Assembly (NCBI GenBank): GCA_015061845.1
Contig: SUVT01000001.1
Coordinates: 10,953-74,952, forward strand
Direction of reading: 5' to 3'
DNA: 64,000 nucleotides
Source: Lentisphaerota bacterium
Lineage (GTDB): Bacteria > Verrucomicrobiota > Lentisphaeria > Victivallales > UBA1829
A program made the position numbers and the translations under genes. Position 1 is the first letter of the stretch. The number at the start of each line of letters is the position of its first letter. The notes below the pieces were generated by a model. The model saw nothing but the letters and a program-made list of their open reading frames with translations. It searched no databases and had not been told where the DNA came from. This document shows, piece after piece, positions 32,262 to 34,681 of this stretch.

Positions 32262-33278
32262 TTACCTACTCGAAATTTCCGGAATTGATTCCTGCCGGAC
32301 GACTTCCGTTTCAATCAGTTTCTGTATCTTCAATTCGGGATTCCGGATTTTTCTTACCAGTTGTTTATACGCTTCGATCCCCGTAAGAAATGGATGCTGC
32401 TCAACGGTAGCTATTGGATAAAAATCGCTGATCCCACGCAGATTACCGAACCCGCCCAGGGCAATTTTTCCCTGCCAATCTATGGATCGCTGATTCAAAC
32501 ATTTGATCAAACGGAACGTATCATCATCAGAACAGGTTAATGCGGCAGTAAAGTCCGGATATTTTTTCAGGATCCGGGACAGGTTGATATTTGCTTCTCC
32601 GACAGAATCTTCATTCAGGATAAATGACCGTTCTTTCCAATCCCGGATCCCAAACTCTTTCATGGCATCAAACATTCCGTCCAGACGTTTCAGATTGTTC
32701 GCAGAATGATAGATCATCACAATATCCCGGTGTCCTTTTTCAAGAACAGCTTTCATGAGCTGGTATCCTCCGGAATAAGAATCACAAGCAACATATTCGG
32801 GAAAAACAGTACTTCCCGCCATATCTTCCAGATAAAGCACCGGCAGCCCCACATCAGGAAGCACCCCGTAATTGGCAGTAAGAATCCCATCTACGGGGAT
32901 CGACCGCAATTCCTGAAGTACGGCATTCATCTGATCCATACCGGGAGAACAGATAGTGACAATGGAGTGATCCTGAATTGCGGCATGCTGGATTCCATAA
33001 GCAATCCGGGAATAGTAGGGAGAATGGATCGCTCCGAAAAAGACAAAGTGATATTTTGGATATTTTCCTGTCCGGAGTACAGTTGTGCCGCCTCTGCCGA
33101 TTCCCCGTTTCACCAGATTTTCTGCTGCAAGCAGGCTTACCGCTTTATTCGCCGTCTTTTTATTGACATTGAACCGTTCCGCCAGTTCATATTCAGAAGG
33201 GAATCTGGTTCCGACCGGATATTTTCCATCACACAACTCTTTTTTCAATGTTGCAACAATACGATCTATCTTTTCCAT
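32262..33278 (-). CDS. GntR-HTH / LacI-type sugar-binding transcriptional regulator
   Basis: FPSEYELAERFNVNKKTANKA HTH; periplasmic-binding-protein-like C-terminus (ATVEQH). Confidence 0.9.
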   Translation of the reverse strand: MEKIDRIVATLKKELCDGKYPVGTRFPSEYELAERFNVNKKTANKAVSLLAAENLVKRGIGRGGTTVLRTGKYPKYHFVFFGAIHSPYYSRIAYGIQHAAIQDHSIVTICSPGMDQMNAVLQELRSIPVDGILTANYGVLPDVGLPVLYLEDMAGSTVFPEYVACDSYSGGYQLMKAVLEKGHRDIVMIYHSANNLKRLDGMFDAMKEFGIRDWKERSFILNEDSVGEANINLSRILKKYPDFTAALTCSDDDTFRLIKCLNQRSIDWQGKIALGGFGNLRGISDFYPIATVEQHPFLTGIEAYKQLVRKIRNPELKIQKLIETEVVRQESIPEISSR

Positions 33279-33305
33279 TATACGCTCCAGTTCTCATTTC
33301 TCATA

Positions 33306-33334
33306 AATATAGCACACATAATCGGATGGGTCAA
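33306..33334 (-). promoter_or_regulatory. Sigma70 promoter of the regulator gene
   Basis: Minus strand TTGACC-17bp-TATATT with TGn extension. Confidence 0.7.
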
Positions 33335-33424
33335 TAAAGTTTTGAAAAAAAATTAAAAATATATTGACAATATGAAATTTTCGATGTATAATAGCAGCGA
33401 GGGATCTTTTAATTGGATGGGTCA
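33324..33424. repeat. 10-bp direct repeat GGATGGGTCA (33324-33333, 33415-33424), candidate operator pair
   Basis: Exact repeat; one copy overlaps the -35 of the leftward promoter, the other lies just downstream of the rightward promoter. Confidence 0.6.
33364..33392 (+). promoter_or_regulatory. Consensus sigma70 promoter
   Basis: TTGACA (33364-69)-17bp-TATAAT (33387-92). Confidence 0.85.
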
Positions 33425-33518
33425 TTTCAAGTTAAAAAAACGAGACCGGATAAATGAGACAATATGAGAAGTTCTCTTGGTTTATCATATTTTCTCTTTT
33501 TATTCTCAAAATAAATAC

Positions 33519-33547
33519 TTGATTTTGCATCCGGAAGCTAATATATT
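33519..33547 (+). promoter_or_regulatory. Possible second sigma70 promoter
   Basis: TTGATT-17bp-TATATT upstream of the prepilin remnant. Confidence 0.4.
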
Positions 33548-33606
33548 TAGAAAGTATTTGATTTTTGGACAATAAGATGATGAAGCAGAGAAAGGATGGA
33601 ACGACG

Positions 33607-33906
33607 ATGAAAAAAACGCTGGAACATGTGACAAAAGACCAGACCCGCCTGAGTGTAAGAATGTTTACCCTGATTGAACTTCTTGTAAATGCTGCTTGTA
33701 AAGTTAGGGTTTCGCCGTTGTTTCAACTCAAAAAATTTGATAAAAACTGCACATCCTTACGCCCGACAGGGCGCACTTCACGTTTGACGCAGTCAAACTC
33801 TTCACACCTTCACATCTTCACTCAATCAGCGTTCACGCTGATTGAACTTCTGGTTGTGATTGCGATCATCGTAATCTCTACCAATAATTGTATCATCGCA
33901 AATTAA
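33607..33906 (+). pseudogene. Truncated prepilin-type gene with two FTLIELLV motifs separated by an in-frame insertion
   Basis: MFTLIELLV...[14 protein letters not shown] then diverges ([11 protein letters not shown]); no globular domain. Confidence 0.7.
33670..33851. mobile_element. Candidate REP/MITE-like in-frame insertion bounded by a 14-bp direct repeat CTGATTGAACTTCT
   Basis: Repeats at 33670-33683 and 33838-33851 (168 bp apart); hairpins CGCCC-GACA-GGGCG (33760-73) and GTTTGAC-GCA-GTCAAAC (33782-98); four CTTCAC copies. Confidence 0.55.
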
Positions 33907-33937
33907 AGTATTTTCACCAACAACGAGAGGTAAAAAA

Positions 33938-34681
33938 ATGAAAAACTGCCAATCAAAAAGAATAGGTTTTACGCTTATCGAATTATTGGTTGTAATTGCG
34001 ATTATCGCAATTCTTGCCGGGATGCTGCTTCCGGCATTGAACAGTGCAAGGGAGAAAGGACGTTCCAGTAACTGTACCAACAATCATAAACAGATCGGCG
34101 GGATGTATTTCATGTATGCCGGAGATAATGATGATATGCTTCCCGGATATTACTACAGCTATTTCAGCAACGGCAATGCCAACAGCTACTGGCATTACAA
34201 ACTGTCGGAAAAATATGGTGGAAAATTCAATTCCAGACAGTTTGTCTGTCCTACGCTTTACGAAAGGATCTACGGTTCCAAAAAAGGGGCTGCCTGGGTA
34301 CAATGCACCTACGGAGCATCCGTTGCAAATCAGAAATTTGCCTATGGATATCTTTCCCTGCCCGCAAGAAAATTATCAAAATTTGCCTATGCTGCACGGG
34401 GCGGAATGATCATAGAAAATTATGGGCATACCATGTGGGAACCGACTACAAGCGGTTTCGATATTGCGACACTTAACGGAACGGGAACATACCGGACAGC
34501 CTTTGTGCATAATGATCGCGCAAATGTCACTTTCGTTGATGGTCATACAGAAGCCAGACAGAAACGGGAAATTCCTGATGATCAATCTTATCCGGATCTT
34601 GCCAAAACGGTTTGGATCAACACGATCTTTTTCCGTTCAGAGAAGCCGCTTGCCGGCTGGGCAACCATCGAAGGACTGTAA
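33938..34681 (+). CDS. Prepilin-type N-methylation / H-X9-DG (DUF1559-like) pseudopilin
   Basis: G|[46 protein letters not shown] (H-X9-DG). Confidence 0.92.

Follow-up and report, generated by a model that had tools for sequence, protein, structure and literature searches.

A 64,000-nucleotide stretch of a Lentisphaerota bacterium genome (assembly GCA_015061845.1, contig SUVT01000001.1, positions 10,953 to 74,952; hereafter the window) raises the question of why one of its prepilin-type reading frames encodes the prepilin motif twice. The open reading frame (ORF) at 33565..33906 on the plus strand comprises a leader, FTLIELLV, 48 residues and a second copy of the motif before it reaches a stop, and the 14-mer CTGATTGAACTTCT is found at 33670-33683 and again at 33838-33851, at an offset of 168 nt. 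A preliminary description of this locus had reported the double motif, the 14-mer repeated 168 bp apart, two hairpins and four CTTCAC units, all of which we recovered at the same positions; a third hairpin (33822-33845) and the early end of the frame, which closes 18 codons past the second motif owing to another inserted element that starts at 33853, were absent from it. We propose that the 168 nt between the two motif copies, here named E168 (33685..33852, plus strand), are probably a selfish, non-autonomous insertion element made of units resembling repetitive extragenic palindromes (REP), each a hairpin followed by CTTCAC, which occupies the prepilin motif between its LL and VV codons.

E168 is a true insertion. 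Empty-site orthologues, which the preliminary description had named as a check, were found in four pairs between the window's genome (G000) and the close genome G001, whose orthologous DNA is 93-99% identical. Two occupied loci of G000, C148 and C158, are empty in G001 (C56 and C80, respectively), and two occupied loci of G001, C36 and C210, are empty in G000 (C58 and C98, respectively), the flanks being otherwise collinear in every pair. The break follows the second L codon in all four pairs, with a junction ambiguity of just 2-3 nt, GT(G). The cleanest pair has an empty allele with the sequence ...GAGTTACTT|GTTGTCATT... and an occupied allele with, at the bar, 168 nt that run from GTGAGTG... 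through ...GAACTTTTG. The ends of E168 in the window, GTAAATGCT...GAACTTCTG, were set from these four pairs and leave upstream an original gene start (33607..33684, plus strand) composed of the leader MKKTLEHVTKDQTRLSVRM and the host FTLIELL codons (33664-33684).

From this insertion point, the FTLIELL on the left belongs to the host and the A-FTLIELL on the right to the element, and codon statistics on the two sides agree. The left motif varies from gene to gene at synonymous sites and is therefore host-derived, its proportion of synonymous differences between copies (pS) being saturated at 0.85, against 0.15-0.17 in the element. The element-borne FTLIELL codons show a mean pairwise identity of 92% in eight G000 copies versus 76% in 91 element-free genes, a value that none of 2000 same-size samples reached. 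The last 24 nt of E168 (33829..33852) encode A-FTLIELL in frame and rebuild the motif, in agreement with the earlier proposal that the insert supplies a fresh copy. The repeated 14-mer is no target duplication, and its right-hand occurrence is part of E168. No target-site duplication was found in the ELL codons to the left and right of the insert, which agree at 7.05 of 9 positions versus 6.88 after shuffling (equalled or exceeded in 146 of 5000 shuffles). Terminal inverted repeats were likewise not found when the 5′ end, GTRARTGYT..., was compared with the 3′ end, ...GCTGATTGAACTNYTG, in an alignment of 34 E168 copies from six genomes (A1); the sole inverted repeat located at an end is the third hairpin, which is internal to the 3′ end.

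A search with positions 33684-33831 as query, retaining matches of at least 63 nt, identified 11 copies of E168 on 11 contigs of G000, with 74-100% identity, among 122 motif sites. Six of them are full-length and in frame, with a motif copy on either side, and five are cut by contig ends; a shortened variant is present in addition on C108. The window copy is 98.6% identical to that of C158. In the complete copies other than the window's, an intact DUF1559-type body of 223-242 residues follows. By Pfam curated cut-offs the C158 gene passes both N_methyl and SBP_bac_10, whereas the C148 gene passes N_methyl alone (SBP_bac_10 at 20.3 bits versus a cut-off of 23.3). Query matches occur in 11 of 61 related genomes, all within one family, and nine of these genomes, in 4 of 34 genera, carry the element (G000, G001, G011, G018, G019, G021, G025, G028 and G033), the matches in G013 and G035 being 21-25 nt of CTTCAC repeats alone and no E168. 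The earlier notion of a small non-autonomous repeat was borne out. Furthermore, an exact-pattern scan with one genome per species returned at least 115 stretches with the E168 pattern; among the matches listed (80), all are Lentisphaeria, Victivallaceae or Victivallales genomes assembled from metagenomes (MAGs) of sheep, roe deer and yak.

E168 is 144-195 nt long and has no coding capacity of its own, and its variants keep lengths that are multiples of 3, as had been predicted. In a first set, 36 of 36 full copies are open and in frame between two motifs spaced by 52, 56, 59 or 65 codons. A further 81 copies comprise 17 truncated by contig ends, 13 shortened or decayed and 51 with an in-frame upstream motif, the latter at 48-59 codons in 49 cases and at 88-91 codons, with an additional insert, in two. 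All copies in which the flanks were read lie at the LL|VV junction, in the orientation of the gene, in frame and in N_methyl/DUF1559-type genes, so that the target is indeed, as the preliminary description had it, the most conserved codons of a large gene family. This shows that integration occurs in one orientation and at one position, in N_methyl/DUF1559 pilin-like genes of ruminant-gut Victivallales.

Because the 3′ end of E168 re-creates the target, further copies can accumulate in one gene. Tandem or stacked copies were found at L051, L072 and L118; L090 and L139 are apparently stacked, with an older upstream copy that has decayed, and at L123 an insert of another family precedes E168. 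The FTLIELL|V junction is occupied by no fewer than two further insert families, 'KRSHLCC..GQVKQYC' and 'LYNRCG..TDKYG' (L123 382-471, L108 and a contig end of G000 C161); the former ends in a hairpin, CTTCAC and its own decayed FTLIELL, and is present in 2 of the 61 related genomes. Parts of the stretch were also detected in 20 public runs, which belong to 13 studies on the gut or faeces of animals and were analysed as assembled Logan contigs that break inside the repeat. Contigs from runs X1 and X7 span 33831/33834 to 34008/34700, and the arrangement is therefore no artefact of a single assembly.

The exact junctions, the single orientation, a target that can be hit again, the conserved hairpins, recent gain and loss between genomes about 5% apart and a patchy spread over four genera together favour a site-specific, enzyme-driven process over homologous exchange. 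In such a process E168 would be joined by a precise cut at the LL|VV junction, and an enzyme supplied in trans would probably recognise the conserved hairpins in single-stranded or folded form.

Several observations weigh against this account of E168 as a whole. Y1_Tnp (PF01797) was not found in the carriers G000 (83% complete), G001 (90%) and G018 (92%), so that the associated RAYT (REP-associated tyrosine transposase) or IS200-type enzyme anticipated by the preliminary description did not turn up in these three; PF01797 is present in G011, G019 and G021. TnpB (PF07282) exceeds its cut-off in none of the 61 genomes. Reverse transcriptase (PF00078) was found in one of the nine carriers, G028 (E = 7.6e-10), the remaining eight giving no match, and the IS110 DEDD transposase (PF01548) in two of the nine (G000 and G001) and also in the element-free G002. 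Serine and tyrosine recombinases, the latter searched as Phage_integrase in five genomes, are too widespread to inform. The assembled contigs showed neither an excision product nor a circle junction nor polymorphism within a sample, although, breaking in the repeat, they are uninformative on excision or inversion in a single sample. Motif codons at the junction diverge more than the surrounding DNA in the four occupied/empty pairs, which could reflect some flank conversion. At the protein level, the residue preceding F is G in just 4 of 92 element-free G000 genes (it is S, K, C, R or N in most of them, S, K and C being commonest) and A in E168; the usual G-1 rule of the prepilin peptidase, which misfits this family, cannot therefore be assumed, and leader cleavage is something that we infer. 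Lastly, the first motif might act as a membrane segment and create a two-helix topology.

All genomes are MAGs, in which mobile genes are often unassembled, and the absence of an enzyme is weak evidence. G018 has just two resolvase-type/tyrosine recombinases, which their scores and their conservation among genomes mark as Xer-like, and a Pfam scan of 26 ORFs of the window (27398-63912) returned no recombinase or transposase. Known routes of movement were also considered and set aside. TnpB/omega-RNA homing would suit a conserved, structured 3′ module beside a conserved flank and was dropped for lack of TnpB in the 61 genomes; retro-copying would suit a 3′ end that is conserved and a 5′ end that varies and was dropped given a reverse transcriptase in 1 of 9 carriers and no Rfam intron match. 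IS110/IS1111-type insertion was discarded because the DEDD transposase, found in 2 of 9 carriers, does not track E168. A classical miniature inverted-repeat transposable element would be small, multi-copy and non-coding, as E168 is, and would have the terminal inverted repeats and the target-site duplication that E168 lacks.

A rival explanation dispenses with transposition, and the failure of four transposase or reverse-transcriptase families to track E168 speaks for it; on this view the sequence arose once and spread among more than 100 paralogues by ectopic gene conversion or template switching through motif homology. Both flanks of E168 are conserved family DNA, tandem copies could be explained by unequal exchange, and the excess divergence of the junction codons in the four pairs, together with the agreement of left and right ELL codons slightly above that of shuffled ones, would be in line with it. 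The homology available on the left, however, is a mere 21 nt with approximately 76% identity between genes, and in the cleanest pair the occupied left motif equals the empty allele to the last base. Co-conversion of the flanks, tested over occupied versus element-free genes, was not detectable overall: the 24 host nt to the right of E168 are equally alike in the two groups (similarity of 0.817 and 0.818, respectively). Moreover, E168 is 85-93% identical across four genera, with a patchy distribution, and was not found in G002, which belongs to the genus of G000 and is 93% complete. We therefore consider spread by homologous exchange unlikely, and retain an enzyme-driven insertion as the better account.

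The part of E168 that is best conserved is its 3′ module, which in A1 consists of hairpin 1, CTTCAC, hairpin 2, three CTTCAC units in 8-nt phase, hairpin 3 and FTLIELL. In the window, all on the plus strand, hairpin 1 (CGCCC-GACA-GGGCG) lies at 33760..33773, hairpin 2 (GTTTGAC-GCA-GTCAAAC), whose length is variable, at 33782..33798, and the four CTTCAC units within 33776..33821, starting at 33776, 33800, 33808 and 33816, the last three in the 8-nt phase. Hairpin 3, TCAATCAGCG-TTCA-CGCTGATTGA (33822..33845), is a perfect 11-nt inverted repeat whose 3′ arm is formed by the element's T-L-I-E codons. The CTTCAC columns are (nearly) invariant. The five stem pairs of hairpin 1 are retained in 33-34 of 34 copies around loops that read GACA, GTCA, GGAA, GCAA, GATA, GGCA or ATCA (and GCGA in the short C108 variant). 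Hairpin 2 varies in sequence, with changes on both sides at 6 of 7 pairs and 99.2% of cells paired, and falls into three length classes differing by 9 and 27 nt; the ten pairs of hairpin 3 are formed in 99.1% of cells, with a single compensatory change (G-C) and eight G-U cells on the plus (sense) strand. Taken together, 22 pairs in the 34 copies are paired in 99.1% of cells and seven pairs have changed on both sides, a covariation score that none of 500 shuffles reached, and slid controls pair at 33-43%. The plus strand of 33655-33875 folds with z = -3.9 (none of 200 shuffles as good), as compared with z = -1.7 for the minus strand. The 5′ module, instead, exists in several unrelated versions, VSVTCQIGVLPLYCLKKIHKNC, VSAACKVRVLPFYYLKIIYKND and VTTAQQNCFSKIKKY, and this part of E168 might be a decayed motif-bearing segment, the likeness being weak by eye.

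Three conserved, covarying hairpins whose G-U pairs favour the sense strand could also denote a host feature, namely a structured mRNA or a pro-peptide that tunes translation, export or processing of certain DUF1559 genes; the frame is always retained, the peptide is always basic, and the E168 sequence occurs in contigs of a metatranscriptome run (X19), in which DNA carry-over is possible. Nevertheless, orthologues of very close genomes differ in the presence of E168, the genes that bear it are unrelated beyond the family fold, older copies within stacks are decaying, and the ratio of non-synonymous to synonymous differences (pN/pS) of the element body is 0.92. In addition, hairpin/CTTCAC units are also found in intergenic DNA, and an Rfam search of 33300-34200 at permissive thresholds gave no match (best 23.6 bits versus a gathering score of 98). 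A role for the host is, on this evidence, very improbable, and a selfish element remains the preferred explanation.

REPs are short G+C-rich hairpins beside a fixed short motif, without terminal inverted repeats or target duplication; they are extragenic, and REPs and their mosaic arrays (bacterial interspersed mosaic elements, BIMEs) are mobilised by RAYT (Y1 HUH) transposases at targets of 4-5 nt. The likeness to REP/BIME noted in the preliminary description stood for the anatomy, whereas the enzyme was not found in three carriers. Hairpins 1 and 2 of E168 are each followed by CTTCAC (on the other strand, GTGAAG 5′ of the hairpin), and arrays related to E168 occur in intergenic DNA and after tRNA genes: units outside genes were found downstream of a tRNA gene (G000 C163), on G000 C54, after tRNA-like ends in G013 (L011, G013:C2) and, in G021 (L019, G021:C34), between two genes, where they include the hairpin 3 stem AATCAGCG/CGCTGATT and no prepilin codons. 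Within G000, 11 of 13 hairpin/CTTCAC loci lie in prepilin-type reading frames. Arrays outside prepilin genes contain up to seven tandem 8-nt CTTCAC repeats. Unlike REPs, E168 is intragenic and in frame and has a target of roughly 20-40 nt of conserved sequence, and it departs from RAYT and IS200/IS605 systems in that no Y1 was found in three carriers and no TnpB in the 61 genomes. Going by sequence, E168 looks like a REP-like array that has gained prepilin-motif ends.

At the protein level, genes with E168 encode the host leader, the host FTLIELL, 41-58 extra residues, the rebuilt motif and an unaltered body. The working signal motif is probably the downstream one, with the insert extending the cytoplasmic leader, which measures approximately 66-85 residues in occupied genes versus a median of 10 in 92 element-free G000 genes. 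The pN/pS of 0.92 in the element body drops to 0.04-0.11 in the motif parts and to 0.10 in the element's own FTLIELL part, and the downstream motif is perfect in older copies whose upstream motifs have decayed (FTLIKPLV, FTLPELLA, FTLFDLPA), the genes downstream of E168 remaining open. Selection would thus bear on frame and openness only, leaving the old upstream motif to decay. All 70 distinct insert peptides are basic (net charge +4 to +11); since the peptide is unconstrained and yet always basic, E168 most likely lengthens the cytoplasmic leader harmlessly, and the added residues would stay in the cytoplasm, either cut off or harmless. The first FTLIELL together with the first 12 insert residues is moderately hydrophobic, with a mean Kyte-Doolittle value of 1.4 versus 2.7 for the real helix. 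A single Peptidase_A24 gene was found in G000, on contig C141. The intein analogy drawn in the preliminary description found no support, and nothing points to removal at the protein level except leader cleavage.

The identical 14-nt runs at both ends of E168 and the hairpin at its 3′ end would also fit an insert that is lost or bypassed ahead of protein synthesis, whether by an intron-like splice, by ribosome hopping between the identical FTLIELL runs or by frequent DNA excision. The length variants, however, are stop-free, all multiples of 3 and differ by whole codons throughout, which would be needless if the insert were skipped. At L140 (JAFWBQ010000122.1), THPYARQGALHV stands in place of TSLRPxGRTSR, since translation passes through hairpin 1 in a different frame, and this frameshift is offset by a second one further on, which restores the frame and a total of a whole number of codons. 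There is no match to an intron or ribozyme family, and the contigs of four runs contain no joint across 33685-33852, the only long skip ('skips 339') being due to paralogues. Skipping is accordingly hardly credible, and an insert that is translated as part of the leader is what we go on with.

Phages and islands that integrate at tRNA genes bring a replacement for the displaced gene segment, so that the target gene stays intact and the junctions are precise. E168 resembles them in bringing a gene segment next to the crossover and in its precise junctions, and differs from them in being 168 nt long and without an integrase, in restoring the 5′ motif of a protein gene and in that the identity segment is not common to both sides, the left one belonging to the host and the right one to the element.

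Closer still are the Rickettsia palindromic elements (RPEs), and the comparison made in the preliminary description was apt: according to the passages on RPEs in PMC10969869 (citing Ogata et al. 2000), these are palindrome-rich, multi-copy, non-autonomous elements of about 150 bp which insert in frame into protein genes and leave the host protein usable. E168 shares with RPEs, as portrayed there, the small size, the palindromes, the copy number, the non-autonomy and the in-frame position that keeps the host ORF. RPEs lie in unrelated genes and at varied positions, whereas E168 is confined to one codon junction, one gene family and one orientation; unlike RPEs, E168 also carries a replacement for the motif that it interrupts, and its position is within a signal/leader region. 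A sequence relation to RPEs is not apparent, no comparison aimed at it having been made.

In-frame palindromic repeats of the RPE type and intragenic invertons are already known. In the open-access literature we found no description of an element confined to one signal-motif codon junction across a paralogous family, nor of one that carries a replacement motif, nor of a mobile, invertible start-codon cassette with motif repeats. E168 points to a new hiding place for selfish DNA, the region of pilin-type genes upstream of the processing site, and because it rebuilds the motif that it interrupts, hundreds of genes bear it at little apparent cost. For annotation, the insert peptide is present in at least 521 protein clusters, few of them named (as prepilin-type, DUF1559 or type II secretion proteins), whose N-termini are mobile-element sequence and skew statistics of leader length and cleavage site; for assembly, E168 breaks contigs, as it does in 5 of the 11 G000 copies. 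Precise, oriented insertion without duplication, inverted ends or a known transposase indicates a mechanism not recognised so far.

In the window itself the claim that the insert sits in the leader of a working gene did not hold. The frame of E168 is closed by the second inserted element, an invertible start-codon cassette of 136 nt (33853..33988, plus strand, in the 'on' orientation), and the gene is started from the cassette ATG. On the plus strand the cassette is made of VVIAII codons, the reverse complement of *FAMIQLLVE, which translates as ...STNNCIIAN up to the stop at 33904-33906, a GAGAGG spacer, the ATG at 33938 and FTLIELL at 33968-33988. The two motif copies form an inverted repeat, 33859-33902 / 33968-34011, of 44 nt with 77% complementarity. 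The expressed gene (33938..34681, plus strand) encodes a pilin-like protein of 247 aa, N_methyl plus DUF1559, in which N_methyl (E = 2.8e-8) and SBP_bac_10 (E = 3.6e-5) both exceed the curated Pfam cut-offs; only N_methyl does so in the 113-residue ORF (33565..33906), which is a by-product. These data show that the window cassette terminates the upstream frame and brings a ribosome-binding site, a start codon, a leader and an FTLIELL of its own, and that this second element has uncoupled the E168-bearing gene start from its gene.

Six such cassettes were found in G000, three facing the gene body (C31, C131 and C85) and three facing away (C11, C125 and C126), and in the latter the body has *FAVIQLLVV... 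and lacks a start codon. One orthologous locus was seen in three states: as an empty, plain gene in G002:C16 (L189), with a 135-nt cassette 'on' in G001:C214 (L188), and inverted in G000:C125, which is 95% identical to G001:C214 over 2.7 kb, with a core of approximately 110 nt inverted. Intragenic invertons (preprint 10.1101/2023.03.11.532203) are short segments of a coding region that are flanked by inverted repeats and flip, thereby changing translation. Like them, the cassette is a segment surrounded by inverted repeats and found both ways at one locus; it differs in being an insertion (the site is empty in G002), in having as repeats the signal-motif codons of a gene family, in its six copies in G000 and in carrying a ribosome-binding site and a start codon. 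No invertase gene was found by the cassette among the 26 scanned ORFs at 27398-63912.

The inversion exchange falls within ACTACCAAYA / TRTTGGTAGT, that is the L-V-V codons, at the same junction as E168. Beside the LL|VV junction, the IAIIAI codons (ATTGCGATCATCGCAAT, at 33853-33870 of the window and in all family members) form a near-perfect 17-nt palindrome, which accounts for self-inverted BLAST hits at many family genes, e.g. C54 and C98. Given the shared L|V crossover and the adjoining palindrome, we tentatively raise the possibility, doubtful as it stands, that the motif DNA (approximately 40 bp around LL|VV) is the attachment site of a dedicated system that inserts, stacks and flips small cassettes in upwards of 100 paralogous genes for surface proteins. 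E168, the two or more other insert families and the invertible cassette may then be cargoes of one system, integron- or shufflon-like and located inside a signal peptide, whose recombinase would be new or a hijacked housekeeping enzyme (Xer-type), because no usual transposase family tracks E168. The cassette suggests on/off switching of single DUF1559 genes, which would be heads of glycan-degradation operons in a gut bacterium.

The stack in the window is, in order, a consensus promoter, the host leader with FTLIELL, E168, the 'on' cassette and the gene body. The promoter, upstream of the whole stack (33364..33392, plus strand), is a sigma-70 consensus, TTGACA-17 nt-TATAAT, with 12 of 12 consensus positions, and its function would be that of a promoter by resemblance. 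It adjoins a divergently read GntR/LacI-type regulator gene (32262-33278). The promoter stretch is kept in G002:C8 (L024) beside the same GntR/LacI-type regulator gene, where the pilin-like gene lies approximately 400 nt nearer to it and has neither E168 nor the invertible cassette. Each of the regulators at 32262, 40462 and 57243 is a GntR/periplasmic-binding regulator followed by a DUF1559 pilin-like gene and then by carbohydrate-binding and glycoside-hydrolase genes, and this gene order, which recurs three times within 32262-63912 of the window, suggests that the pilin-like genes head glycan-use operons. Head-to-head remnants were also observed in G000 (C119:14295; C8, minus strand, 12361; C29), in which a leader and FTLIELLV directly abut a second motif copy in reverse complement, a gene body being absent from both sides; one of them retains the ...TQSAF signature of E168 on the opposite strand.

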